A stretch of 64,000 nucleotides of DNA from an uncultured Thermoplasmatales archaeon. Lineage in GTDB: Archaea; Thermoplasmatota; E2; DHVEG-1. Both the position numbers and the translations under genes were made by a program. The DNA lies in NCBI GenBank assembly GCA_964636235.1, contig CAZWQV010000001.1, positions 13,022-77,021 on the forward strand, in the 5' to 3' direction. Under the pieces are notes generated by a model. The model did no database searches. It was given only the letters and a program-made list of their open reading frames with translations, and was not told the origin of the DNA. Below are positions 9,123 through 62,254 of this stretch, in pieces (position 1 is the first letter of the stretch; the number at the start of each line of letters is the position of its first letter).

Positions 9123-10091
9123 ATGAGTATAGATCAAAGGGATAAGAAATTACTATATCATTTAAGTTTAAATTCAAGAATGTCCCTAGAATCTTTAGGT
9201 AAAATATTATATCTAAGTAAAAATTCTGTAAAGTATAGAATAAAAAGATTAGAAAAGATAGGAGTAATAAAAAATTATTATACCGTGATTGATATATTTA
9301 AACTTGGATACATCTGTATTCGGTGTTATATAACTTATCAAAACATCTCTCCTGAAATAAAATATAAAATAATCAATCATTTCAAATCCAATAAAAATGT
9401 CTGCGTTGTATCCTCAATGACAGGGCCATCGAATCTTACTGTCATTTTTTGGGTAAAAAAAATTAATGAATTCCAGAAATTTTGGCTGGAAACATACAAT
9501 AAATATGGATATTTTTTTAACAAACAAAACTTATCGCTTTATTATGAAATTCATCTTTACCCATTTACATTTCTCAATATGCACGAGGATGATTTTGATA
9601 ATAAAAAAAGAGATGAAATAATCATTGGTGGAAATGTTATAGAAACCGATCAAATTGATTTTAAGATAATGAAAATGTTAGCATATAATAGTAGAATACC
9701 AATAAAAACTATAGCTAATAAATTAGATATATCCATAAGAACTGCACATTATAGAATAATAAAATTAAAAAAGATGGATATAATTCGGATTTTTACTATT
9801 AATATTGATTTTTCTAAACTGGATTTCAAATGGTTCAAAGTGGATGTTTATTTATTCGATAATAGTAAAAAAAATAATATTATTCATTATTTAAAAAATA
9901 ATCCAAATATGACGGCTATTGATATAACAACTGGTTTTTCTGATTTGGAACTTGAATTTCATGTAAAAGATATTGGACAACTTGATTGTATACTTGATGA
10001 TTTAACAAGTAAATTTAACACTTCGATAAAATATTATTCATATTTCAATATTAAAGAAAATTACAAATATTATTACTTTCCAGAAAAATAA
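9123..10091 (+). CDS. Transcriptional regulator with two tandem Lrp/AsnC-like HTH modules
   Basis: Two HTH-like segments (LSKNSVKYRIKRLEKIGVI and DISIRTAHYRIIKLKKMDII), each followed by a RAM-like region; paralogous to the ORF at 35571-36620. Confidence 0.5.
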   Translation: MSIDQRDKKLLYHLSLNSRMSLESLGKILYLSKNSVKYRIKRLEKIGVIKNYYTVIDIFKLGYICIRCYITYQNISPEIKYKIINHFKSNKNVCVVSSMTGPSNLTVIFWVKKINEFQKFWLETYNKYGYFFNKQNLSLYYEIHLYPFTFLNMHEDDFDNKKRDEIIIGGNVIETDQIDFKIMKMLAYNSRIPIKTIANKLDISIRTAHYRIIKLKKMDIIRIFTINIDFSKLDFKWFKVDVYLFDNSKKNNIIHYLKNNPNMTAIDITTGFSDLELEFHVKDIGQLDCILDDLTSKFNTSIKYYSYFNIKENYKYYYFPEK

Positions 10092-10426: not shown

Positions 10427-11989
10427 ATGAAAAAGCTGATCTTAATCATAATAACTTTATCTATGATCATTCCAACAACTATCAGTTCGTCTTTGCCGCA
10501 TTCATTTAATGAAATACCTACACAAATATCAACAATCGAGGATCTAGATCCTTTGTTAGACTTAACAGTCACGTTTGAACTCCTAAAGTTACGATCACTT
10601 GAAAAAAATGATAACCATCTTCATTTTCGAGAATATATCGATAGATACACAGACCCAGATTTCTATCTTAAAGTATGGATCAACGGAGAAATGAGTAAAA
10701 GTCCCATTTGGAGAAATACTTGCTACATATACGATCCAAATTGGAATATAACCGTAAACGTTCCAGATGATGAAGAATGGGTAGATATAAGAATTGAGCT
10801 ATGGGATTGGAATCTTGGAAGAGATCAAAAATGTGATATCAGTGGATATCAAGATGGTGGAAAGGACAGATATGGTGTTGAATTGCAATATTGCATAAAG
10901 AGCGGGCATTGGATTGGTGGTGATTATTTAGAAAATCTTTATCTAAACGCTGATCCCAGTGGATACGGTCGATTGGATGGATGTGATGATGGTAGTATTT
11001 ACCAGCATGATTTTGATTGTGAACTCTGGTTCAATATTTATCAAAACGATTACGATGGGGATGGCATCCCATATTGGACAGAGGTGAATGTCTATGGAAC
11101 AGATCCCCAGATTGATGACAGAGGGAGGGATGATGACGGTGATGATGTACCTATTGAATGGGAACACAAATGGGGAAATTCATACAAATGGGATTACGAA
11201 ATATTCGAATATAACCAACTCTATTGGTATGATCCCTTTTCTTGGGATGATCATCATAATATTGACATTGACAATGATGGATTATCTAATTATGAGGAAT
11301 ACCTCACATCTCAATGGGGCTCAGATCCTTTTAGAAAAGATCTTTTTGTGGAAATGGACCTGATGGAGCCAGGACCTAATGGTGAATTAACAGAGTTTCC
11401 AAGGGATTCTAAAGAGATTCTTCGAACTGTTTATGATCGACAAAACATCGTGTATCATCTTGATGATGGATATATGGGTGGCGGTGAACGTATACCTTTT
11501 GATGATTCAGCAACCGATGATGAGATAAAAGAGATTTATTGGAATTATTTTTTACACGGAGATGAGAATTGTTGGAGACGTGGTGTATTTCATTATGGAT
11601 TAGTTATCTATAATGCTGAACGATTTCCTGGTTTTGGTTTCTGGGGAGGAGTGAAACCTGTTATTGATTCATATCAGATTTCTGCGTTAGGCATGGATAA
11701 AAAGGCGAACTTGTTCTACTTGAATAGAGATATTGTTTATGCAAGTGCATATATGCATGAATGTGGGCATACCCTTGGTATATTCCATGGTAATACGCCG
11801 GGTTGTGATGATCAAGAGGGAAAATATCCCTGGCAGGCGAACTGGTGGAGATGGCGATCATATAAAAGTGTGATGAATTATGGTTATATGTATCAAATGG
11901 TCGATTATTCAGATGGATCTAGAGGAAAGAACGATTTTGATGACTGGGATAGGCTTGATTTCAAGTTTTTTGAAACCCCTCTTTGGTAA
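10427..11989 (+). CDS. Secreted metzincin zinc metalloprotease with acidic Ca-binding (thrombospondin-type-3-like) repeats
   Basis: Signal peptide; HECGHTLGIFH (HExxHxxGxxH) and downstream Met-turn SVMNY; DxDxDG repeats (DYDGDGIPYWTE, DIDNDGLSNYEEY, DDDGDDV). Confidence 0.6.
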   Translation: MKKLILIIITLSMIIPTTISSSLPHSFNEIPTQISTIEDLDPLLDLTVTFELLKLRSLEKNDNHLHFREYIDRYTDPDFYLKVWINGEMSKSPIWRNTCYIYDPNWNITVNVPDDEEWVDIRIELWDWNLGRDQKCDISGYQDGGKDRYGVELQYCIKSGHWIGGDYLENLYLNADPSGYGRLDGCDDGSIYQHDFDCELWFNIYQNDYDGDGIPYWTEVNVYGTDPQIDDRGRDDDGDDVPIEWEHKWGNSYKWDYEIFEYNQLYWYDPFSWDDHHNIDIDNDGLSNYEEYLTSQWGSDPFRKDLFVEMDLMEPGPNGELTEFPRDSKEILRTVYDRQNIVYHLDDGYMGGGERIPFDDSATDDEIKEIYWNYFLHGDENCWRRGVFHYGLVIYNAERFPGFGFWGGVKPVIDSYQISALGMDKKANLFYLNRDIVYASAYMHECGHTLGIFHGNTPGCDDQEGKYPWQANWWRWRSYKSVMNYGYMYQMVDYSDGSRGKNDFDDWDRLDFKFFETPLW

Positions 11990-12042: not shown

Positions 12043-12573
12043 ATGACCGATCAAATAGTTTATGATGTGATAGAAAAAATTGATACGTTAGAGATACGTC
12101 AATACCCCGAGTTAATATTCGCTGTGGTTGAAAACGATATGGATGATTCTGGATTTAATTTATTGTTTCGATATATCTCTGGTGAAAATAAAACACAAAG
12201 TAAAATTAGGATGACTGCACCAGTAATTACCTCAGAGAAAATGAAAATGACAGCCCCTGTCGTTTCTCGAGATCATTATATGGCTTTTGCAATTCCTTCC
12301 GCTTACAATAAAGATACAGTCCCTATACCAATAAATCCTTCAGTAAAAATTGAAGTTCAACCAAAAAAAATAATGGCGGTCCTTAAATTTAATGGAAGAA
12401 CGTCTGAAAAAATAGTACAAAAATATATACAAGAACTTATCAATATCTTAAAAACTCATAAAATACAGATTAAAGCAGAACCAGTATTGATGAGATATAA
12501 TAGTCCTTTTACCCCTGGTTTTTTACGAAGAAACGAAGTAGCAGCAGAAATAATTAAAAACAATAAAAAGTAG
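12043..12573 (+). CDS. SOUL/HBP heme-binding family protein
   Basis: Conserved SOUL-like blocks (YExxxxxxxYExR, MTAPV, RxNE near C-terminus). Confidence 0.6.
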   Translation: MTDQIVYDVIEKIDTLEIRQYPELIFAVVENDMDDSGFNLLFRYISGENKTQSKIRMTAPVITSEKMKMTAPVVSRDHYMAFAIPSAYNKDTVPIPINPSVKIEVQPKKIMAVLKFNGRTSEKIVQKYIQELINILKTHKIQIKAEPVLMRYNSPFTPGFLRRNEVAAEIIKNNKK

Positions 12574-12628: not shown

Positions 12629-13195
12629 TTATGGTTCTCTAAGTACCTTGTATAAATTGGATGTATCAAATCCTTCCCTTTTAGCAATATCTTTCATTTC
12701 ATTGAGAAGCGTGTCATCTATTACCGGTATTCGTGATAGGAACCAAAGATTTTCTCTGTTTTTTGTTCCTACAACAGCCCATTGATAATTATTATCCAAT
12801 CCTATAACATTATAATCAGAGTCAAATCCAAAAAAGTTAACAATTAAAGCACCATTTTTATTAGAACTATTTGCATATCGAGCGGTCCCTTCTATTTGCT
12901 TTTCACGTCCTCTAAGGATGCATTTATTTAACACATGAATAGTAGTTTCAGATTCAACAGTATATGTTGCCGTGCTATTGATACATTTTTCTGAGGAATA
13001 ACCAAATGGATAAATTCCATAAAAAACTGGGAGTTCATATACGCTATACCATAAACCAGAATATTGAACAGCATCCAATTCATCGACTACGTTGAGAGGT
13101 TCACCAGGATTGTCATCAATACAACCAGAAAAAAATCCGATACAAAGAAGTGAAATTGTTATAAATAAAAATATAATAAACAATTGCTTTTTCAT
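12629..13195 (-). CDS. blc: Bacterial-type lipocalin (Blc-like) lipoprotein
   Basis: Signal peptide with lipobox-like FSGC; lipocalin SCR1 YSGLWYSV; Blc-like NYQWAVVG ... LWFLSR. Confidence 0.65.
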   Translation of the reverse strand: MKKQLFIIFLFITISLLCIGFFSGCIDDNPGEPLNVVDELDAVQYSGLWYSVYELPVFYGIYPFGYSSEKCINSTATYTVESETTIHVLNKCILRGREKQIEGTARYANSSNKNGALIVNFFGFDSDYNVIGLDNNYQWAVVGTKNRENLWFLSRIPVIDDTLLNEMKDIAKREGFDTSNLYKVLREP

Positions 13196-33466: not shown

Positions 33467-35431
33467 TTATTGACGGTTTTTCACAAGTGTATCGACAATA
33501 CTTGGATCTGCAAGTGTGCTTGTGTCTCCCAGTTGATCTAAATTGCCATCAGCAATTTTACGTAGGATACGTCTCATGATTTTTCCAGATCTTGTTTTTG
33601 GAAGACCTTCAGTGTATTGGATTTTATCTGGACTTGCTATAGCCCCTATTTCCTCTCGAACGGTTTTGACAAGTTCTTTAGTAAGATTATCATCAACCGT
33701 TTCACCTGCCTTTAAGGTGACATATGCATAGATTCCTTGTCCTTTTATATCATGTGGGAATCCAACGACTGCTGCTTCTGCAACTTTCTTATGTTTCCCA
33801 AGTGCACCTTCCACTTCAGCAGTTCCAATTCGATGGCCTGATACGTTGATAACATCATCTACTCGACCAGTGATCCAATAGTATCCATCATTATCTCTAT
33901 AAACACCATCACCTGTGAAATATAGGCCGGGATATACTGAGAAATAGGTTTCTTTAAATCGTTTATGGTCTCCATAGACTGTTCTCATAAGTCCGGGCCA
34001 TGCATCTTTTATAACAAGATTACCACTGACATCATTACCTTTAATTTCAGTTCCTTGATCATCAACAACCATGGGCTCAACACCGAAGAATGGTAAAGTC
34101 GCGCTTCCTGGTTTCAATGGTGTAGCTCCTGGAAGAGGAGTAATTAAAATGCCACCAGTTTCTGTTTGCCACCAGGTATCAACAATAGGACATCGTTTTC
34201 CTCCAACGAGATTATAATACCAATGCCATTCTTTCGATTTAATTGGTTCACCCACAGTTCCTAGAAGTTTTAATGAAATAAGATCATGTTCTTTTACCCA
34301 TTCATCTCCCTCTCTCATTAGAGCTCGAAGGGCAGTTGGAGCAGTATAGAAGCTATTTACTTGATATTTTTCACAAATAGCCCAGAATCTTCCCCAATCT
34401 GGATAGTTAGGAACTCCTTCGTACATGATTGTAGTTGCCTTATTTGTAAGTGGACCATAGACAATATATGAATGCCCTGTAATCCAGCCAATATCGGCAG
34501 TACACCAATAAATATCTCCGGGGTGATAATCAAATACATATTTGTGAGTGACTGCTGCATAAACAAGATATCCACCCGTTGTATGTAGTACGCCTTTTGG
34601 TTTTCCAGTTGAACCAGATGTATATAAAATAAATAATGGATCTTCTGCATCCATTTTTTCTGGTGGACAGACCGGGTCTGCATTTTTCATTTCTTCATGC
34701 CACCAACAGTCTTTATCAGAAAATGCAACTTCCTTACCTACACGCTTTACCACAATAACAGATTCGATACTTGGAGTATCTTTTACTGCTTTGTCAGCTG
34801 TTACTTTCATGGGAAGTGGTTTTGCTCCTCGAACACCCTCATCTTGAGTGATAAGAATTTTACATTCTGAATCATTAATTCTATCTCGAAGTGAATCTGC
34901 TGAAAAACCTCCGAAAACGATAGAGTGAATTGCGCCAATTCGTGAACAGGCAAGCATTGATATTGCTAATTCTGGAACCATCTGGAGATAAATGCAAACT
35001 CGATCTCCTTTTTTGACCCCTTTGCTTTTCAAAACGTTTGCAAATTTTTGAACTTCATCAAGAAGCTCTTTGTAGGTAAATTCTTTATCCTGAGTTGGCT
35101 CATTTCCTTCCCAGATTATAGCAATATCATCTCCATATCCATTTTCGACATGTCTATCTAAGCAATTATAGGAAACATTAAGTTTACCATCAACAAACCA
35201 TTTTATTTTTGCATCATTAAAGTCGCAGTCTTTTACTTTTGTCCATTTTTTAAACCAGCTTACTTGTTCTTCTGCTAATTTTGCCCAAAATCCTTCCGGA
35301 TCTTTCACTGATTCTTCGTACATTTTTTTGTATTCTGACATATTTTTTATATATGCGCGATTACTAAATTCTGGATTTGGTGCATAAGTTGGAATAGTTG
35401 TTTCTTCAGCCATATTTTTTAATTCCTCCAT
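33467..35431 (-). CDS. acs: Acetyl-CoA synthetase (AMP-forming)
   Basis: 654 aa; [14 protein letters not shown]-binding motif, Acs-type N-terminal domain, C-terminal [11 protein letters not shown]. Confidence 0.9.
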
Positions 35432-35570
35432 ATTTCACAATTTTTTGAGTTATTCCTCAATTTTTTCATTTAATAGGTCTTATTATCCCCCTAAATGGGG
35501 GTGCTCGAATAATCTTACAGTATAAGAAGTTTTTGTAACATTTATCCATAAATTATTGAGTAATATTAAA

Positions 35571-36620
35571 TTAAATTTCAAGAATCTTTTTAGTAATTGG
35601 TGCAAAATCAAAATGCTTTAAAAATTCCATTTGGTCAAACATATATTTTCTAACAAGCGGTGTATAACTTATAAAATCATTCTCTTTTAAAAAACGAATT
35701 TTTTGCATTTTATCCTCTTTATAATTTTGATATGAGGGATATGCAGAAATAATAACACTTTCAAATCGTCTACTTGCAAGAAAAATCGTAGAAGGTGTAT
35801 CAAGAACTGAGATATCTTCTTTAGATGGTGGTTTTCCAGGATTATATTGGAAATGATAAAATGCAAGAATTTCAAAACCCAACTTATGTAAATTTGGTAT
35901 GGTAAGATTTTTCATTAATTTGAGTTGATAAAACTTGTTTTTTAAACGAGAAACAGTATGTCTTGAAAGATTTACTATATCTCCTATTTTTTGGGTTGTT
36001 TTTTGAGGATATTCAATCAAGGTAGCAAAAACAAGTTTTTCTTTTTTTGAAAGAGGGATAGGTTTTCCATTTTTAAACCATTGTTCATCCGTTGCATTGT
36101 TAGTATTATCAATATTATAATATGTACCTAGTGTTCTACCGTAATTAAAAAATCGAATGATATTGCTTGTTTGAAAAGGAAAAATCATCTCTGATGGATA
36201 TTCATTTTCAAGTAATCCTAATTTCCCAAATGTTTCAGTTCTAATATCATTAATTTTTCCAATATTAGTATAATTTTTTGATAAACTTATTGAAAAACCC
36301 TTTTCTTGTATACCCGTAGAATAAAATATTTCATCGTAAATTTCAATTGATTCTTTTGCCCGCTCAATTCGTTCTTTTAATGGAATGATAGGATTGAATT
36401 CTGAGTGAATTACGGCTAATAATTCACTACCTAGTTTGTTTAGAAGAGGAATGCGAATTTGTTTAAATGCATCATGTTCTATTAATCGTCTTTTTATTGA
36501 TGTAAATGTTGAAAGTTTTACATTGATTATCTCAGATAATGCACTATCATTAAGCTCTGGATAGGTGACAAGTCCAAATAGTACCTTTTGTTCATTTTTT
36601 GTTAATTCTATATGATTCAC
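35571..36620 (-). CDS. Transcriptional regulator with two tandem Lrp/AsnC-like HTH modules (paralog of 9123-10091)
   Basis: Internal duplication (LTKNEQKVLFGLV ... IKRRLIEHDAF // LSKKEKLVFATLI ... SRLKNKFYQL); divergent from the acn-aclBA-icd operon. Confidence 0.5.
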   Translation of the reverse strand: MNHIELTKNEQKVLFGLVTYPELNDSALSEIINVKLSTFTSIKRRLIEHDAFKQIRIPLLNKLGSELLAVIHSEFNPIIPLKERIERAKESIEIYDEIFYSTGIQEKGFSISLSKNYTNIGKINDIRTETFGKLGLLENEYPSEMIFPFQTSNIIRFFNYGRTLGTYYNIDNTNNATDEQWFKNGKPIPLSKKEKLVFATLIEYPQKTTQKIGDIVNLSRHTVSRLKNKFYQLKLMKNLTIPNLHKLGFEILAFYHFQYNPGKPPSKEDISVLDTPSTIFLASRRFESVIISAYPSYQNYKEDKMQKIRFLKENDFISYTPLVRKYMFDQMEFLKHFDFAPITKKILEI

Positions 36621-36832
36621 ATAAAACGAAAATGATTAAGGTTTTATATAATTTTCTCATTTTCACTAAAAATGATATCAATTAATATTATTTTGATAAT
36701 TATTATAACAATTTTGCTCATAATAACGAATTATAGACACAAGAAATAGATTATTGCCGAATTGAAAGGGAAAACATTTATTAAATAGACAAACATTTAT
36801 TCGCAAAAATCTCAAATCAAGAGGTTTCCACC

Positions 36833-38773
36833 ATGGGAAAGTCAATAACTGAAAAAATACTTGACAAACATATTGTCAAAGGAACTCCTGAAAAAGGAGA
36901 AGAAGTTGGGATTAGAATTGATCAAACCTTAACCCAAGATGCTACTGGCACTATGGCATATCTTCAATTTGAGGCTATGAAAGTGCCAAAAGTCAAAACA
37001 GAATTATCGGTAAGCTATGTCGACCATAATACAGTTCAAATTGGATTTGAAAATGCAGATGATCATAAATATTTACAAAGTGTAGCTGCAAAATATGGAA
37101 TAGTATATTCAAGAGCAGGTAATGGCATCTGTCATCAAGTTCATCTTGAAAGATTTGGAAAACCTGGAAAGACATTGCTTGGATCTGATTCCCATACCCC
37201 AACAGGTGGGGGCATTGGAATGATTGCAATAGGCGCTGGTGGACTAGATGTAGCAGTAGCAATGGCCGGTGGTCCATTTTATCTAACTTGCCCTAAGGTA
37301 ATAAAGGTTAATTTGAAAGGAAAACTTAAACCATGGTGTGCCGCAAAAGATGTTGTTCTAAAAGTTTTAGAAAAATTCACCACAAAAGGTAACGTTGGAA
37401 AAGTCTTTGAATATTCCGGCCCTGGCGTAAAAACATTAAATGTACCTGCCCGAGCAACGATTACGAATATGGGTGCCGAGTGCGGTGTTACTACAAGTGT
37501 GTTCCCAAGTGATGATATTACCAAAGAATTCTTGAAAGCACAAGGTAGGGAAGATGATTGGATTGGTCTTACCGCCGATGATGACGCAACATATGATGAA
37601 GTTGTGGAAATCAATTTAAGTGAAATTGAACCATTAGCTGCAACCCCACATAGCCCAGGAAATATCAGTAAAGTAAAAGATCTAGAAGGGATGAAAGTTG
37701 ATCAAGTGTGTGTGGGAAGTTGTACAAATTCATCATATAGAGACCTTATGACAGTTGCTAAAATAATTGAAGGGAAAACAGTTCATCCCGATGTAAGTTT
37801 TGTTGTTGCACCAGGGTCAAGGCAGGTCATTCAAAATATTGCAAAAGACAGTGGTCTTACTAGCATTTTAAATGCTGGTGCTCGTCTTGCTGAATCAGCT
37901 TGTGGTTTTTGTATCGGAAATAGCCAATCACCAAAAACTGACGCAGTTAGTCTTCGAACAAGTAATCGTAACTTTTTAGGTAGAAGTGGAACAAAAAGTG
38001 CAAATGCTTATTTAGTTAGTCCTGAAACAGCAGCAGCAGCCGTATTAACTGGAGAATTTACCGATCCTAGAGATTTAGAAAAGAAGGGCATTAAATATCC
38101 AAACGTAAAAATGCCTATGAAATTCATCATTGATGATTCCATGTTTATCTTCCCAAAAGATGCGAAAAAAACAGAGATTTATCGTGGACCAAATATTGGA
38201 GATCCACCTGAAGCAGAACCATTGAAAGATACTATCAAAGGCGATGTTACTATTAAAGTTGAAGATAAAATCACAACGGATCATATCATTCCAGCCGGAT
38301 CAAAAATGAAATATCGAAGTAATGTTCCAAAATACTCAGAATTTTTATTTGAAGTGGTTGATCCAACATTTCATGATAGAGCAAAACAACTCAAGGAAAG
38401 AGGAAGAGATAACATCATTGTAGCAGGTCTCTCATATGGACAAGGTAGTAGCAGAGAACATGCTGCATTATGTCCTATGTATATGGGTGTGAAAGCAGTC
38501 ATTGCAAAATCAATAGAACGAATCCATAATGCAAATCTGATTAATTTTGGTATTTTACCATTGAATTTTAAAAATGAAAAAGACTATGATACAATAGACC
38601 AAGGGGACGAACTGGAGATTCCAAACATTAAATCAATTTTAAAGGATGGAAAAAATTTAATAGTGAAAAATAAAACGAAAGGAACTGAATTTGAAGTTAC
38701 CTACAATCTTTCTGATAGGCAAAAAAATGTATTGCTTGCAGGAGGAACACTTGCATTTATGAAAGATAAATAA
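36833..38773 (+). CDS. acn: Aconitate hydratase (catalytic plus swivel domains, 646 aa)
   Basis: Aconitase family motifs (IRIDQTLTQDATG, GSDSHT, CTNSS, SYGQGSSREHAA swivel); first gene of operon with ACL and IDH. Confidence 0.82.
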   Translation: MGKSITEKILDKHIVKGTPEKGEEVGIRIDQTLTQDATGTMAYLQFEAMKVPKVKTELSVSYVDHNTVQIGFENADDHKYLQSVAAKYGIVYSRAGNGICHQVHLERFGKPGKTLLGSDSHTPTGGGIGMIAIGAGGLDVAVAMAGGPFYLTCPKVIKVNLKGKLKPWCAAKDVVLKVLEKFTTKGNVGKVFEYSGPGVKTLNVPARATITNMGAECGVTTSVFPSDDITKEFLKAQGREDDWIGLTADDDATYDEVVEINLSEIEPLAATPHSPGNISKVKDLEGMKVDQVCVGSCTNSSYRDLMTVAKIIEGKTVHPDVSFVVAPGSRQVIQNIAKDSGLTSILNAGARLAESACGFCIGNSQSPKTDAVSLRTSNRNFLGRSGTKSANAYLVSPETAAAAVLTGEFTDPRDLEKKGIKYPNVKMPMKFIIDDSMFIFPKDAKKTEIYRGPNIGDPPEAEPLKDTIKGDVTIKVEDKITTDHIIPAGSKMKYRSNVPKYSEFLFEVVDPTFHDRAKQLKERGRDNIIVAGLSYGQGSSREHAALCPMYMGVKAVIAKSIERIHNANLINFGILPLNFKNEKDYDTIDQGDELEIPNIKSILKDGKNLIVKNKTKGTEFEVTYNLSDRQKNVLLAGGTLAFMKDK

Positions 38774-38787
38774 GAAGGGGTAAACGT

Positions 38788-40074
38788 ATGGCACAAAAAG
38801 GTATAAGAGAGTATGATGCAAAAAGAATGATGGCGAAAGCTTTACCTGAGTATTCAAATGGAAAAATCAAATTTGAAGCAAAACAGGTATTGATTGGTCC
38901 TGACACAGATCTGAATAAACTTGAAAAAGAAAATCCTTGGCTTAAAAAAGAAAAATTAGTTGCTAAACCGGATCAATTATTCGGAAAAAGAGGGAAAAAT
39001 AATCTTCTTTATGTCAATAAATCATGGGATGAAGTGAAAAAGTGGATCAAGGAACGAATGAACAAAAAAGTTACTATCAAACAAACAACTGGTGAAACCA
39101 CAGGTGTTCTTACTCATTTTCTGGTGGAAAAATTTGTACCTCATAAAGAAGAATATTACGTTGCTATCACCACCCATAGAGAAAAAGATATTATCCATTT
39201 TTCTATGAAAGGTGGTGTAAATATCGAAGAAGTATGGGATAGCGTTGTCACTCTTGAAATTCCTATATTAAAATCAATTGACGAGGTAAATGTAGAAAAA
39301 TTTTTACCAAAAGAACTTGGTGATAAAAAAGAAAAAGTAGCATTATTTATAAAAACAATTTACAAGATGCTGGTGGATTATCATTTTGTCTATTTGGAAT
39401 TGAATCCATTCACTTTTGTAAATAATGAACCTGTTGCTCTAGATACTGTTGCAAAAGTCGATGATTATGCTTCATATCAATGTGCTGAAAAATGGGGAAA
39501 TCTGAAATTTCCCAGCCCATTTGGACTTAATAAAATAAAAGAGGAAGAGCGAGTGGATGACCTTGACGAACGAACAGGTGCATCATTAAAATTAACCGTA
39601 CTAAATCCTGAAGGACGTATATGGAATTTAGTTGCTGGTGGTGGTGCAAGCGTTATTTACGCTGATACAGTTGCAGATCTTGGATTTACTGATGAGCTTG
39701 CAAATTATGGTGAATACAGTGGTAATCCAAGTACTGAGCTTACCTATGAATATACAAAAACAATCCTTGATCTTATGACAAGATCTAAAGATAAAAAAGG
39801 ACGTCCAAAATTTTTGATTATTGGTGGAGGAATAGCTAATTTCACTGATGTTGCTAAAACATTCACAGGAATTATTCAAGCTATAGATGAATATGCAGAT
39901 AAACTAAAGAAAACCAATGTAAAAATATATGTCAGGAGAGGTGGACCAAATTATAAAGAGGGGCTTGAAAACATGAGAAGACTTGGGAAAAAACTTGGCC
40001 TTCCAATTGAGGTGTACGGTCCCGAAACACATATGACACGTATTGTTTCAATGGCTCTTAAAGGAGGTGAATGA
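38788..40074 (+). CDS. aclB: ATP-citrate lyase beta subunit (ATP-grasp, SucC-like)
   Basis: 428 aa ATP-grasp protein; 3 bp from the aclA start. Confidence 0.78.
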   Translation: MAQKGIREYDAKRMMAKALPEYSNGKIKFEAKQVLIGPDTDLNKLEKENPWLKKEKLVAKPDQLFGKRGKNNLLYVNKSWDEVKKWIKERMNKKVTIKQTTGETTGVLTHFLVEKFVPHKEEYYVAITTHREKDIIHFSMKGGVNIEEVWDSVVTLEIPILKSIDEVNVEKFLPKELGDKKEKVALFIKTIYKMLVDYHFVYLELNPFTFVNNEPVALDTVAKVDDYASYQCAEKWGNLKFPSPFGLNKIKEEERVDDLDERTGASLKLTVLNPEGRIWNLVAGGGASVIYADTVADLGFTDELANYGEYSGNPSTELTYEYTKTILDLMTRSKDKKGRPKFLIIGGGIANFTDVAKTFTGIIQAIDEYADKLKKTNVKIYVRRGGPNYKEGLENMRRLGKKLGLPIEVYGPETHMTRIVSMALKGGE

Positions 40075-40077
40075 TCT

Positions 40078-41958
40078 ATGGCATCACAAAAAGCAAAGCA
40101 AATAAAAAAATTACCTGATTATGAATTATTTGACAAAAATACCAAAGCTTTTATCTATGGGACTCAACAAAAAGCAGCCCAACGCATGCTTGACTTTGAT
40201 TACATGTGTGGCCGCGGAGAACCAAGTGTAGTAGGTTTTATTACTCCAACAGGTGGAGGATATTATCAATTATTCTGGGGTACAAAGGAAATTCGAATTC
40301 CTCGATACACAAGTATCAATGAGGCAATCAAAGCACATCCTGAAGCAGATGTTATGGTCAATTTTGCCTCCGAACGTTCATGTGCTGAATCAACCATGGA
40401 AGCATTGGAAACCGACACCATTAGAACCATTATCATGATTGCAGAGGGAGTTCCTCAAAGAGATGTAAGAAAAATCGCAAAAATTGCTAAGGACAAAAAG
40501 AAATGGATTATTGGTCCAGCGACCGTTGGAGGTATCAAACCAGGTTGCTTTAAAATTGGTAATGCTGCAGGAACATCTCAAAATATTAAGGATACAAAGT
40601 TATATCGGCCTGGATCTGTAGGATTTGTTTCGGTCTCTGGTGGTTTATCAAATGAAGGATACAATATTGTAGCACAAAACACAGATGGTATTTACGAAGG
40701 ATATGCAGTGGGTGGTGATGTGTACCCGGCAACAACATTACTAGATCATCTTTTACGGTATGAAAAAAATCCTAACATAAAGATGATGGTTAGTCTTGGA
40801 GAAGTTGGGGGAAAGGACGAGTATGATATCGTGGATGCGATAAAACAGGAAAAAATCACAAAACCCTTGGTTATGTGGGTAACTGGTACCTGTGCTGAAA
40901 TGCTACCCGGTGGCGTTCAATTCGGCCATGCTGGTGCAAAAGCAGAAGGAAAAGAAGATACCGCAGCGGCAAAAAATAAAGCGTTAAAAGATGCAGGAGT
41001 CGTCGTTCCTGATTCATTTGATGATTATGGGGAAAAAATCAATGAAACATTTTTGAAACTGAAAAAACAGGGAAAAATCCAGGAAATTGATGAACCAACT
41101 CCCCCACATATTCCAATGGATTACAAACAGGCTGTGGCTGAAGGTCTTGTTAGAAAACCAACAAATTTCATTTCAACTATCTGTGATGAAACTGGTGAAA
41201 TTCATAATTATTGTGGAGTTCCTATAGATGAAGTTATTAAAAAAGGATATGGCATCGGAGGAGTGCTCGGTCTCTTATGGTTTAAAAAGGATCTACCAAA
41301 ATATGCAAGAGAATTTATCGAACTTGTGATTCAAATTGTAGCAGATCATGGACCTGCAGTATCTGGTGCTCATAACACGATTGTCACCGCAAGAGCAGGA
41401 AAAAGCCTTATTGAATCAATCATCAGCGGTATTGTAACAATTGGCCCTCGTTTTGGAGGTGCAGTAAATGGAGCTGCAAAACATTTTTCATTAGGACTTG
41501 AAAAAGAATTAGAGCCACGTGAATTTGTTGATTATATGAAAAAACAAAATATTCGGATCCAAGGAATCGGACATCGAATTCATAGCATCGACAATCCTGA
41601 TGAACGGGTGGAAATAATGATCAACTATGCCAAAAAACATTTTCCAAAGCATCCATTGCTCGATTATGCATTACAAGTTCAAGCGGTTACCACTATGAAA
41701 AAGAATACATTAATATTAAATGTTGATGGATGTATCGGAGTGCTCTTTGTTGATATGCTTATCAACCTTGGATACTCAAAAGATGAAATTAAAGAAATGA
41801 TTGATATGGGATTCTTTAATGCATTTTTCATTATCGGTAGAACCATGGGATTCATGGGCCATTATTTCGATCAAAAACGATTGAAAACACCATTATACCG
41901 TCATCCATGGGACGATATTTTATATGATGTTCCGAAAAAACCAGAAAAAGTAGAATAG
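40078..41958 (+). CDS. aclA: ATP-citrate lyase alpha subunit (CoA-binding + phosphohistidine + citrate-synthase-like domain)
   Basis: GHAGA phosphohistidine motif; C-terminal citrate-synthase-like IGHRIHSIDNPDERV, diagnostic for ACL rather than succinyl-CoA synthetase. Confidence 0.8.
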   Translation: MASQKAKQIKKLPDYELFDKNTKAFIYGTQQKAAQRMLDFDYMCGRGEPSVVGFITPTGGGYYQLFWGTKEIRIPRYTSINEAIKAHPEADVMVNFASERSCAESTMEALETDTIRTIIMIAEGVPQRDVRKIAKIAKDKKKWIIGPATVGGIKPGCFKIGNAAGTSQNIKDTKLYRPGSVGFVSVSGGLSNEGYNIVAQNTDGIYEGYAVGGDVYPATTLLDHLLRYEKNPNIKMMVSLGEVGGKDEYDIVDAIKQEKITKPLVMWVTGTCAEMLPGGVQFGHAGAKAEGKEDTAAAKNKALKDAGVVVPDSFDDYGEKINETFLKLKKQGKIQEIDEPTPPHIPMDYKQAVAEGLVRKPTNFISTICDETGEIHNYCGVPIDEVIKKGYGIGGVLGLLWFKKDLPKYAREFIELVIQIVADHGPAVSGAHNTIVTARAGKSLIESIISGIVTIGPRFGGAVNGAAKHFSLGLEKELEPREFVDYMKKQNIRIQGIGHRIHSIDNPDERVEIMINYAKKHFPKHPLLDYALQVQAVTTMKKNTLILNVDGCIGVLFVDMLINLGYSKDEIKEMIDMGFFNAFFIIGRTMGFMGHYFDQKRLKTPLYRHPWDDILYDVPKKPEKVE

Positions 41959-41973
41959 TGGAGGATTCAACAT

Positions 41974-44205
41974 ATGAGTAAAGATGAAAAAATAATTTAC
42001 ACAAAGGTTGATGAAGCACCAGCTTTAGCAACCTGCTCTTTTCTTCCCGTTGTAAAAACTTTTTCGGATGCAGCTGAGATCAATATTGAAACAAGAGATA
42101 TCTCTCTTGCGGGAAGAATCATTGCTCGATTTCCTGAAAATCTAACAGATGAACAAAAGCAATCAGATGATCTTGCAGAGCTTGGAGAACTGGTAAAAAA
42201 ACCAGAAGCAAATATAATCAAATTACCGTGTATCAGTGCTTCTATCCCACAATTAAATGCTGCCGTTAAGGAATTACAAAAGAAAGGGTATCAGATTCCT
42301 GATTATCCTGAGGAACCAGAAACTGATAAAGAAATGGAAATCAAAGTACGGTTTGATAAAATCAAGGGTAGCGCCGTGAATCCGGTACTTCGTATGGGAA
42401 ACTCCGATAGACGAGTACCTGACCCTGTGAAAAACTATGCAAAGAAACATCCTCATCCAATGGGTGAATGGTCAGCAAGTTCAAAATCACATGTTGCTCA
42501 TATGAAAAAAGGTGATTTACGTTCAAATGAGAAATCAACCACGATCACAAAAGATGATGAAGGTATTGCTAGAATTGAATTGTTGAAAGAAGATGGATCT
42601 GTGCATGTTTTAAAGGAAAAACTTCCTTTAATTCAAGGCGAAATAATTGATGCATCTGTCCTAAGTAAAAAAGCCCTTCGATTATTTATTGAAAAACAGA
42701 TTGACGATGCAAAACAAAAAGACATTTTATTCTCAGTACATCTAAAAGCAACCATGATGAAAGTTTCGGATCCCATTATTTTTGGTCATGTTGTATCTGT
42801 CTTTTTTAAAGATGTATTTGAAAAACATGCTGAAACATTTAAACAGCTCGGGATCAGTCCAAACAATGGTCTTGGGGATTTATATGCCAAAATTAAGCAA
42901 TTACCGGATAATCAACGAAAAGAGATTGAACAGGATATTAAAGCGTGTTATAAAAAACAACCGAAACTTGCGATGGTAAACTCAGATAAAGGCATTACAA
43001 ATCTTCATGTCCCATCAGATGTTATTATTGATGCTTCCATGCCAGCTGCCATTAGAAATTCAGGAAAGATGTGGGGACCAGATGGCAAAGCATATGATAC
43101 GAAATTTGTCATTCCGGATAGTAGTTATGCAGGAGTATATCAAACAGTTATAGAATTCTGTAAAAAACATGGTGCCTTTGATCCAACAAGCATGGGAACT
43201 GTTCAGAACGTGGGATTAATGGCTCAAAAGGCAGAGGAGTATGGATCGCATGATAAAACCTTTGAGATTGCTGAGAAAGGAATAGTACAAGCAGTTTCAG
43301 AATCAGGGACAGTACTGCTTGAACAAGCTGTTGAGCAAGGCGATATCTTCCGTATGTGCCAGGTGAAGGATTTACCGATTCAAGACTGGGTGAAACTTGC
43401 GGTTAATAGAGCAAAAACAACTGGATTTCCTGCCGTATTTTGGCTTGATAAAACAAGAGCACATGATGCTGAACTAATTAAAAAAGTAAATGTCTATTTG
43501 AAAAATTATGACACAAACGATCTTGAGATTCATATCAAATCACCTGTTGAAGCAACCCAGTTTTCCTGTGAATTAATAGCAAACGGAAAAAACACCATCG
43601 CCGTTACAGGAAATGTTCTTAGGGATTATTTAACTGATCTATTTCCAATTCTTGAAGTGGGAACCAGTGCTAAAATGCTTTCCATTGTTCCTCTTATGAA
43701 GGGCGGTGGATTGTTTGAAACAGGTGCTGGCGGATCTGCTCCAAAACATGTACAGCAATTTAATGAGGAAGGACATTTACGTTGGGATTCACTTGGGGAA
43801 TTTTTAGCACTTGCTGCTTCATTTGAGCATTATAGCAAACGAACAAATAACGAAAAGGCGCATATTCTTAGCAAAACCCTTGATAGAGCAACTGAAAAGT
43901 TTCTTGAAACAAATAAATCTCCATCTCGAAAAGTGAACGAACGAGACAATCGTGGAAGTCATTTTTATTTAGCAATGTACTGGGCAGAAGCATTGGCACA
44001 GCAAACAGAGGATACATCATTAAAAGAACGGTTTTCAAATCTTTTCAACAAGTTAAAAGAAAAGGAAGACATCATCAATAATGAATTACTTGGCGCACAG
44101 GATAAAACCGTGGATATCAACGGATACTACAAACCTGATGATAAATTAGCAAGTAAAGCGATGCGTCCAAGTGAGACATTTAATTCAATCCTCGATGCAT
44201 TTTAA
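41974..44205 (+). CDS. icd: Monomeric NADP-dependent isocitrate dehydrogenase
   Basis: 743-aa single-chain IDH, length and N-terminus typical of the monomeric IDH family. Confidence 0.85.
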
Positions 44206-61403: not shown

Positions 61404-61754
61404 TTATTCTTCTAATTTTGCAAGGGTTTTTTTTATTGCCATATACCATTGTTCAAGACAACGTTCTGCATGTTTTTTTATCGTTTTATTATCCAAACAT
61501 GTATAGACATGATAATAGCCGCCTTGTGCGAGGTTTCTAGTTATTTTGTCACACATTCCACAATTCGCTAATTTTTGTAATGATCGATAAACCGTGCTTC
61601 TTTCTTTATCAAGTTTTTTTGCTAATTCATCTGCTCTAAGCTCTCCAGATTTTTTGAGCAATTTATATACTTCAATATCTAAGTTATTCAGATTAAAGAC
61701 ACATTTTACTGCATCATCGCATTGAAGGTTTTTGGTATCATCCAAAACTCTCAT
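61404..61754 (-). CDS. Small winged-helix (TrmB/MarR-like) transcriptional regulator
   Basis: 116 aa; HTH region LRADELAKKLDKERSTVYRSLQKL; divergent from trxA. Confidence 0.5.
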   Translation of the reverse strand: MRVLDDTKNLQCDDAVKCVFNLNNLDIEVYKLLKKSGELRADELAKKLDKERSTVYRSLQKLANCGMCDKITRNLAQGGYYHVYTCLDNKTIKKHAERCLEQWYMAIKKTLAKLEE

Positions 61755-61843: not shown

Positions 61844-62254
61844 ATGACAGACGAGTTAGCAGCAATTAAAAGAAAAAAACTCGAAGAATTAAAAAAGAGA
61901 TATTTAACTGGAGGAAATGACATGGAAAATATGCCAAATACACCACTAGATGTTAAAGATGCGAATTTTAATGATTACATTAGCAAATATGATACAATTG
62001 TTATTGATTGTTGGGCTCCCTGGTGTGGACCTTGCAGGATGATCGCACCAGTTATTGAGGATCTGGCAAAAGAAATGCAAGGAAAAATCGTTTTTGGAAA
62101 ATTAAATGTTGATGAAAACCAATCGACATCAACACAATATGGGATAATGAGTATTCCTTCATTACTTGTATTTAAAAACGGAAAACTGGTTGACAAGATT
62201 GTCGGTGCAATGCCCAAACCGATGCTTAAAACAAAACTTGAATCATATATGTAG
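61844..62254 (+). CDS. trxA: Thioredoxin
   Basis: WAPWCGPC active site; 136 aa. Confidence 0.88.
   Translation: MTDELAAIKRKKLEELKKRYLTGGNDMENMPNTPLDVKDANFNDYISKYDTIVIDCWAPWCGPCRMIAPVIEDLAKEMQGKIVFGKLNVDENQSTSTQYGIMSIPSLLVFKNGKLVDKIVGAMPKPMLKTKLESYM

Follow-up and report, generated by a model that had tools for sequence, protein, structure and literature searches.

Two tandem Lrp/AsnC-like proteins from different families lie beside peptidase and ATP-citrate lyase genes in an uncultured Thermoplasmatales archaeon and share an upstream word that is not conserved

Two putative transcriptional regulators, R1 and R2, are encoded within a 64,000-nt stretch of DNA from an uncultured Thermoplasmatales archaeon (assembly GCA_964636235.1, contig CAZWQV010000001.1, positions 13,022 to 77,021; hereafter the window). 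R1 (9123-10091, + strand) is a 322 aa putative regulator of the tandem Lrp/AsnC, or double FFRP, type, with an N module of ~aa 1-150 and a C module of ~aa 170-322, and it is divergent from two overlapping genes for secreted Peptidase_C25 proteins with N-terminal signal-like sequences (5814-7322 and 7319-9013, - strand; Pfam scores 185 and 165 bits). R2 (35571-36620, - strand) starts with GTG, encodes a 349 aa protein composed of tandem winged helix-turn-helix (wHTH) and RAM-like domains, and is divergent from the acn-aclB-aclA-icd operon (36833-44205, + strand), the acn ATG being located at 36833. Both open reading frames (ORFs) and both divergent arrangements agree with a preliminary description of this DNA, which had also read R1 and R2 as clearly similar paralogs and a 10-mer present in both divergent intergenic regions as their common operator. 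Our comparisons favour two different regulators built on one plan.

The internal duplication reported for both proteins is readily seen when each is compared with itself: the halves of R1 align over 148 aa with 29% identity (E 8e-14), and those of R2 over 93 aa with 32% identity (E 2e-13). In R1, Pfam models of AsnC-type winged HTH domains score far above their cutoffs (HTH_24, 72.1 bits, cutoff 21.9; HTH_AsnC-type, 62 bits, cutoff 27), each of them in two stretches, aa 3-50 and ~176-222, and the C-terminal βαββαβ RAM domain (AsnC_trans_reg) that characterizes Lrp/AsnC proteins is present as well. In a search of PDB profiles, the R1 profile preferred DNA-binding FFRPs over siroheme decarboxylases by 17 orders of magnitude. 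On the basis of these Pfam and PDB profile matches R1 is classified as a genuine tandem Lrp/AsnC protein. A hand alignment to the contact pattern of FL11 (PMC2715240) suggests that the residues at the base-contacting positions differ between the two heads of R1. Prediction of R1 half-sites from the FL11 contact code was nevertheless abandoned, because the predicted bases were too ambiguous for testing a box.

R2 has no match to the Pfam models HTH_AsnC-type and AsnC_trans_reg at E<=1, and by sequence it is thus not a member of Lrp/AsnC. Its Pfam HTH matches are weak and of the TrmB/MarR type, with the N-terminal wHTH passing the TrmB HTH cutoff (30.5 bits, cutoff 25.6); no NCBIfam model matched better than E 0.017, and the R2 family profile reached FFRPs in the PDB only at E 0.02-0.14. 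The AlphaFold (AF2) model of R2, predicted with high confidence (pLDDT 88, pTM 0.88), consists of a wHTH followed by a βαββαβ domain, the whole being duplicated, and its halves match the FFRP structures 2cyy, 7fby and 9w4w (Foldseek probability 1.0, TM 0.62-0.73). R2 is, according to this model, a tandem wHTH and RAM-like protein of the Lrp/AsnC fold, an assignment made solely through the predicted structure. The earlier designation of both proteins as tandem Lrp/AsnC-like therefore stands for R1 by Pfam and PDB profiles and for R2 by the AlphaFold fold, but not for R2 by the Pfam AsnC models.

The description had further proposed an unusual regulator family, and this is borne out for R2, which belongs to a large, conserved and unnamed Thermoplasmatota regulator family whose superfamily comprises 846 clusters at 50% identity. 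Some databases label relatives of R2 as MarR or TrmB-like, and Pfam appears to be without a model of its own for the tandem wHTH-RAM-like unit. In the family alignment, few parts of the protein are conserved as strongly as the HTH segments. Distant relatives of R2 show Response_reg-PAS-module or PAS(-PAS)-module architectures (proteins P0252, P0202, P0246 and P0289), and two distant superfamily loci lie, respectively, beside dnaK-grpE and divergent from a histidine kinase gene and upstream of an FG-GAP protein gene. Because of these fusions to REC and PAS domains and the adjacency to a histidine kinase, archaeal signalling proteins appear to employ the tandem unit as their output domain, and the REC and PAS domains of the distant relatives argue for R2 being a transcription factor rather than an enzyme. 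One paralog is divergent from a 7TM histidine kinase gene (locus L087).

Compared directly, R1 and R2 are only weakly similar. Their best BLASTP segment covers 69 aa at 20% identity (E 0.014), which does not amount to the clear similarity of the HTH segments that had been described, and homology became visible only when the family profiles were aligned with hhalign (94% probability, E 1e-7), over 87 columns corresponding to the HTH, the linker and the first strand (β1). The base-contacting residues differ among the four HTH heads of the two proteins. The profile comparison indicates that R1 and R2 share a common plan and a remote ancestor and are not recent paralogs; the term paralogous is appropriate at the level of the superfamily, not in the sense of close paralogs.

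The window contains exactly two copies of the 10-mer GCAAAAATCT, both on the + strand (9065-9074 and 36803-36812), and the second lies 21-30 nt upstream of the acn ATG, as the preliminary description had it. The word extends to a 16-mer, TTATTYGCAAAAATCT, with 15 of 16 positions identical between the sites: copy 1, TTATTTGCAAAAATCT, spans 9059-9074 and copy 2, TTATTCGCAAAAATCT, spans 36797-36812, both on the + strand. The word was picked after the fact, and by test the match ranges from borderline to moderately non-random (p ~0.43 to ~0.002). Two copies of the 10-mer were reached in 9 of 100 shuffles of the whole window; a shared word of at least 10 nt appeared in 43% of simulated region pairs with the composition of the two regions (17% and 23% GC; p 0.43), so that a signal based on length is absent, and weighting of the 10-mer by composition gave p ~0.04. 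Both intergenic regions also share a longer exact word, the all-A/T 13-mer ATAATTATTATAA (9037-9049 and 36696-36708), which overlaps a putative TATA box of the C25 genes in the R1 region and lies within a central dyad in the acn region.

Upstream of R1, the 10-mer makes up the core of AATTATTTGCAA-aaatc-TTGCACATAATT (9057-9085), a 29-bp near-palindrome that was found by repeat search and has 12-nt arms that are 92% complementary, separated by a 5-nt spacer. This palindrome includes the box GCAAA[AAT]cTTGC (9065-9077), which has the form abcdeWWWedcba, a dyad of ~13 bp established as the binding-site form of archaeal FFRPs (PMC2715240). The centre of the palindrome (9071) lies halfway from the putative R1 TATA box (9092-9101) to that of the C25 genes (~9041-9055), both tentatively read off the sequence, and the 10-mer sits ~50 nt before the R1 start (~-50). 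The palindrome is a plausible candidate for an R1 operator. In the aligned upstream regions of R1 orthologues (n=5) the proximal promoter is conserved, and a variable stretch stands opposite the 10-mer.

The intergenic region between acn and R2, 212 nt in the window, was aligned with those of related loci, giving 58 control regions. Conserved among them are two pairs of B recognition element (BRE) and TATA box, a GAGG Shine-Dalgarno sequence and several central blocks that do not belong to promoters. Promoters and transcription starts were assigned from sequence and conservation only. The putative R2 core promoter (36642-36659, - strand), consisting of the BRE-like TGAGAAAA and the TATA box TTATATAAAA and centred ~27 nt before the GTG, is among the most conserved blocks, and R2 is probably leaderless. 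The predicted acn core promoter, GAAAACA and TTTATTAAA as BRE and TATA box (36770-36785, + strand), is conserved in nearly all 58 loci and is followed by the GAGG at 36821-36824. Between the two promoters, a repeat search identified a central dyad (36686-36727) formed by the blocks TTATTTTGA...TCATAATAA, with the family consensus TGnTCA-~16 nt-TGAnCA and conserved G/C positions in alignment columns 90, 93 and 115. Scored across clades as an inverted repeat, blocks 1 and 2 reached z 3.3 compared to z 0.6 for the direct-repeat control, and blocks 2 and 3 reached z 2.2, direct-repeat models giving z 0.6-0.8. The central dyad is the best-supported candidate for an R2 operator. Block 3 (columns 146-158) contains AGATTATTGCCGAAT (36748-36762), an inverted near-copy of the core of the 16-mer (GCAATAATCT on the - strand) with one mismatch. 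Together with 36799-36812 it forms an inverted repeat that flanks the acn TATA box (cross-clade z 2.5); as few loci are individually significant, we treat it as a weak lead.

The two copies of the word occupy different promoter positions. The acn TATA box starts 26 nt before G36803, the predicted transcription start of acn, and copy 2 would accordingly lie at the beginning of the 5' untranslated region (~+1 to +10), compared with ~-50 for the copy upstream of R1; moreover, the acn copy is without the second half-site of a palindrome. The word is thus part of two different elements, the core of a palindrome at R1 and the transcription-start region at acn. Neither was it conserved: the 16-mer had no match in the 85 related loci searched, and in the acn-R2 regions close relatives retain only CGAAAAA(A)TC at the position of the 10-mer and distant ones have CCGCACCRATAC in its place, despite the strong conservation of the R2 HTH segments. 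The proposal of a common operator is not upheld by these comparisons, since the word is found in none of the 85 loci, is unconserved in the intergenic regions of R1 and R2 orthologues alike and differs in promoter position. Most likely, judging from the sequences, the shared word is a coincidence or a lineage-specific feature rather than a conserved common operator.

The genomic context of R2 is strongly conserved. Among 56 distinct R2-family loci with enough upstream sequence, 54 have a divergent aconitase gene no more than 400 nt away, both exceptions originating from one sample. In the window, the acetyl-CoA synthetase gene acs (33467-35431, - strand) lies directly 3' of R2 and has a promoter-like region of its own; an acs gene followed R2 in the same direction in 50 of 53 loci, usually with a fumarase gene after it. 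The acn-aclB-aclA-icd operon is a probable target of R2.

Conservation within this gene order is mosaic when the window (at 38788-41958) is compared with loci L002, L008, L009, L023, L027, L031 and L061. L002 has the closest R2, Acn and Acs (85%, 86% and 89% identity), yet its AclB and AclA are only 58-60% identical, and loci in which R2 is only 56-63% identical have AclB and AclA that are 84-92% identical. Acs identity is bimodal across loci, either ~48% or ~80-89%. This pattern suggests that aclBA and acs were replaced or recombined inside a conserved gene order. The isocitrate dehydrogenase also varies: the window (at 41974-44205) and L002 encode a 743-aa monomeric-type enzyme (PF03971) after aclA, and L003 has a 408-aa Iso_dh gene (4608-5834) between acn and aclB.

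The leader of acs (35432-35570, - strand) has a conserved start, TTATTCGAGCA, which is followed by a GC-rich CCCCC/GGGGG hairpin (35487-35501). Comparison of L002, L014, L019, L057, L061 and L064 showed that in L002 one hairpin arm carries a C to T change that still pairs as G·U, and that other clades have different hairpins, GACC...GGTC, at the same place. An Rfam scan of 35380-36900 returned no family. The acs leader may represent an undescribed cis-regulatory RNA.

R1 belongs to a small family whose members adjoin genes for secreted proteins or peptidases. In the window, the C25 pair (5814-9013) is a probable target of R1. On the 3' side, a secreted 520-aa protein (10427-11989, + strand) carries the metzincin signature HECGHTLGIFH at aa 444, a regular-expression match to the HExxHxxGxxH motif; it has no Pfam family above threshold, with Astacin and Reprolysin at only E ~0.05, and is probably a divergent zinc metalloprotease. 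If so, R1 has secreted proteases on both flanks, and this metzincin-like gene is a possible further target. The neighbours in the family loci are not one fixed gene, yet repeatedly encode a secreted protein: Peptidase_C25 lies beside an R1-family gene in the window and beside one of three tandem-Lrp paralogs on a Hodarchaeota contig (L082), and other neighbours are Peptidase_M14 (L080), an 823-aa β-helix/NosD protein, FG-GAP (L083) and PKD (L076) proteins, β-helix/NosD genes being next to R1-family genes in L078 and L082. The three tandem Lrp/AsnC paralogs of L082 (GCA_048887025.1; genes 2402-3373, 6001-6993 and 10507-11472) lie within 10 kb and are interleaved with genes for secreted hydrolases (β-helix/NosD, α/β-hydrolase and Peptidase_C25).

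Other features of the window were recorded in passing. A gene for a SOUL haem-binding protein and one for a lipocalin-like protein (12043-12573 and 12629-13195) lie 2-3 kb downstream of R1, and no link to R1 was found. Between the genes for a TATA-binding protein (4991-5590, - strand) and an SdhA/FrdA-like flavoprotein (2249-3910, - strand), 1080 nt (3911-4990) are free of ORFs of at least 120 aa and contain TTTGCAAAAA (4206-4215, - strand). A small 116-aa single winged-HTH protein (61404-61754, - strand), divergent from a thioredoxin gene (61844-62254, + strand), matches the R1-family hidden Markov model weakly (E 9e-7) and in the HTH only.

We favour, with moderate confidence, two different regulators on one plan, R1 acting locally at its palindrome and R2 at the acn control region, with no conserved common operator. 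Beyond architecture, fold, remote homology, synteny, promoter conservation and non-conservation of the word, we infer DNA binding, targets, effectors and the direction of regulation. Each protein fuses two Lrp/AsnC units, each with a winged HTH and a βαββαβ RAM-like domain, in one chain and would thereby form a covalent pseudo-dimer, in which the two RAM-like domains would be packed like those of an Lrp dimer and provide one or more effector sites, and two non-identical HTH heads would read two half-sites for which symmetry is not required. R1 would be a local regulator, probably responsive to amino acids or peptides, that binds the dyad with its centre at 9071, flanked by the R1 promoter on one side and the promoter of the divergent C25 operon on the other. 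Acting from ~-50 on the two divergent promoters, it would control the C25 operon, itself and possibly the metzincin-like gene. Position ~-50 is used by archaeal Lrp-type activators such as Ptr2. Ptr2, LysM and Ss-LrpB act as activators (Lrp review). R2, the dedicated neighbour of the acn/acl/icd operon, acs and fumarase, would bind several phased central blocks of the 212-nt region, in the stretch that separates its leaderless promoter from that of acn, and a metabolite of the citrate/acetyl-CoA node would be the signal by which it adjusts the acn-acl-icd operon and its own expression.

Several observations weigh against this interpretation. The palindrome upstream of R1 is the best of its region, but it reaches only p ~0.056 against shuffles and is not retained in R1 orthologues of 58-62% identity. 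The tests of the R2-region dyad are modest (z 2.2-3.3) and the loci are phylogenetically related. In the fetched loci, the identity of R2 (53-85%) overlaps that of Acn (75-91%), AclB (51-88%) and Acs (33-89%), which is high for a regulator. Furthermore, the 16-mer scores 21.7 bits compared to a null of 14.8±1.8 (p ~0.002) and ranks top among 27 intergenic partners of the R1 region, and its inverted near-copy (core 36748-36757, - strand), upstream of the acn BRE and TATA box, lies across the TATA box from copy 2. The last two points also speak for the alternative in which the 10-mer or 16-mer serves R1, R2 or both as a genuine common operator, coupling C25 expression and R1 autoregulation to acn-acl-icd in a feast/famine circuit: no shuffle yields two copies of the 16-mer, the inverted core beyond the acn TATA box could make a real site, and the R1 copy is inside a palindrome of FFRP type. 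We consider this alternative doubtful, since the match was selected after the fact and simpler tests gave p 0.04-0.43, the word is missing from the 85 related loci searched and unconserved in both families, the acn copy has a single half-site and a different promoter position, and the four HTH heads differ in their contact residues. Unlikely, in our estimation, is also a more far-reaching proposal: that the R2-type tandem wHTH-RAM proteins are a widespread unnamed archaeal transcription factor family, that the acn-linked orthologue is a metabolite-sensing switch of the ATP-citrate-lyase/acetyl-CoA node in uncultured Thermoplasmatota, and that the 16-mer is in addition a true shared site coupling extracellular proteolysis by C25 peptidases to this node.

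The word could alternatively reflect promoter grammar, i.e. an initiator and the first transcribed bases, in which case R1 would have a second, distal promoter with a TATA box at ~9041-9049 and a start near G9065. In acn, the start of the TATA box and that of the word are 26 nt apart, and almost all acn promoters keep ATTC at this place; TTATTCG is found again at the corresponding site of the acs promoter (35506-35512, - strand), and a TATA-like sequence, TTATTATAA, is found 24 nt before G9065. However, ATTYG after a TATA box is not general among the promoters of the window, which led us to discard it as a general initiator motif of this genome, TATTYG is only ~1.5-fold enriched in intergenic DNA, and R1 orthologues keep the proximal leaderless promoter and not the word, making this explanation quite unlikely. 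That R1, R2 or both are no regulators at all, but fused siroheme decarboxylases of the AhbA/AhbB or NirDL type, is suggested by shared fold and length and is extremely improbable. HxYxR is a conserved active-site motif of siroheme decarboxylases (PMC4145669); it was present in 0 of 19 R1-family and 0 of 28 R2-family sequences. R1 scored 22 bits with the NCBIfam model of AhbA (cutoff 140) and 15.3 bits with that of AhbB (cutoff 125), widely missing both, and R2 matched neither. In the window and in ~60 loci R1 is accompanied by peptidase genes and R2 by acn/acl/icd/acs/fum, rather than by haem or d1 genes (ahbC/ahbD, nirJ). Together with the preference of the R1 profile for DNA-binding FFRPs and the REC and PAS fusions of R2 relatives, these data led us to reject the siroheme-decarboxylase identity.

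Single-unit FFRPs and the fused AhbAB/NirDL enzymes are already known. A limited literature search found no description of fused double-Lrp transcription factors, of the R2 family or of a regulator of an archaeal ATP-citrate lyase operon; tandem forms are unmentioned in the Lrp-family review, and the passages of a census of archaeal response-regulator output domains reached by a targeted term search do not mention the tandem module. The uncultured Thermoplasmatota considered here are peptide degraders carrying ATP-citrate lyase. To our knowledge, regulation of central carbon metabolism in uncultured Thermoplasmatota is undescribed, and the literature searched did not address it. The recurrent position of R2 beside acn-acl-icd and ahead of acs provides a concrete candidate regulator together with a defined control region. 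The repeated pairing of R1-type regulators with genes for secreted peptidases or surface proteins suggests a route for switching on extracellular proteolysis, and the shared 10-mer carries little weight unless binding is shown.

The archaeal FFRPs compared, P. furiosus LrpA (1i1g), Pyrococcus FL11/PH1519 (1ri7, 2e1c), PH0140 (7fby), Ss-LrpB and LysM, represent single units of ~150 aa that form symmetric dimers, whereas R1 and R2 each fuse two diverged units with different heads, for which an asymmetric site is possible. R2 is additionally outside the Pfam AsnC models and reaches the FFRPs of the PDB by sequence only at E 0.02. A fused double-Lrp regulator with two different heads would extend FFRP DNA recognition to asymmetric sites and an obligate pseudo-dimer. 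The only characterized tandem Lrp-fold proteins are NirDL/AhbAB, in which fusion is common in archaea; their structures (4czc, 4czd) are the only solved ones of this kind, are of similar length and are the best full-length structural match for both the R1 and the R2 model. NirDL/AhbAB are, in contrast, enzymes with the HxYxR motif that R1 and R2 lack, and they differ from R1 and R2 in their NCBIfam models and genomic context. With TrmB regulators R2 shares an N-terminal wHTH that passes the TrmB HTH cutoff, but the sugar-binding C-terminal domain is absent from R2, where a RAM-like βαββαβ domain follows the HTH and the whole unit is duplicated, and R2 is accordingly no member of TrmB. Comparable as well are archaeal one- and two-component regulators with REC or PAS input and wHTH output, since distant members of the R2 superfamily have a REC-PAS-module or PAS-module architecture or adjoin a histidine kinase gene; R2, by comparison, has no input domain, and its RAM-like domains would be the sensor.
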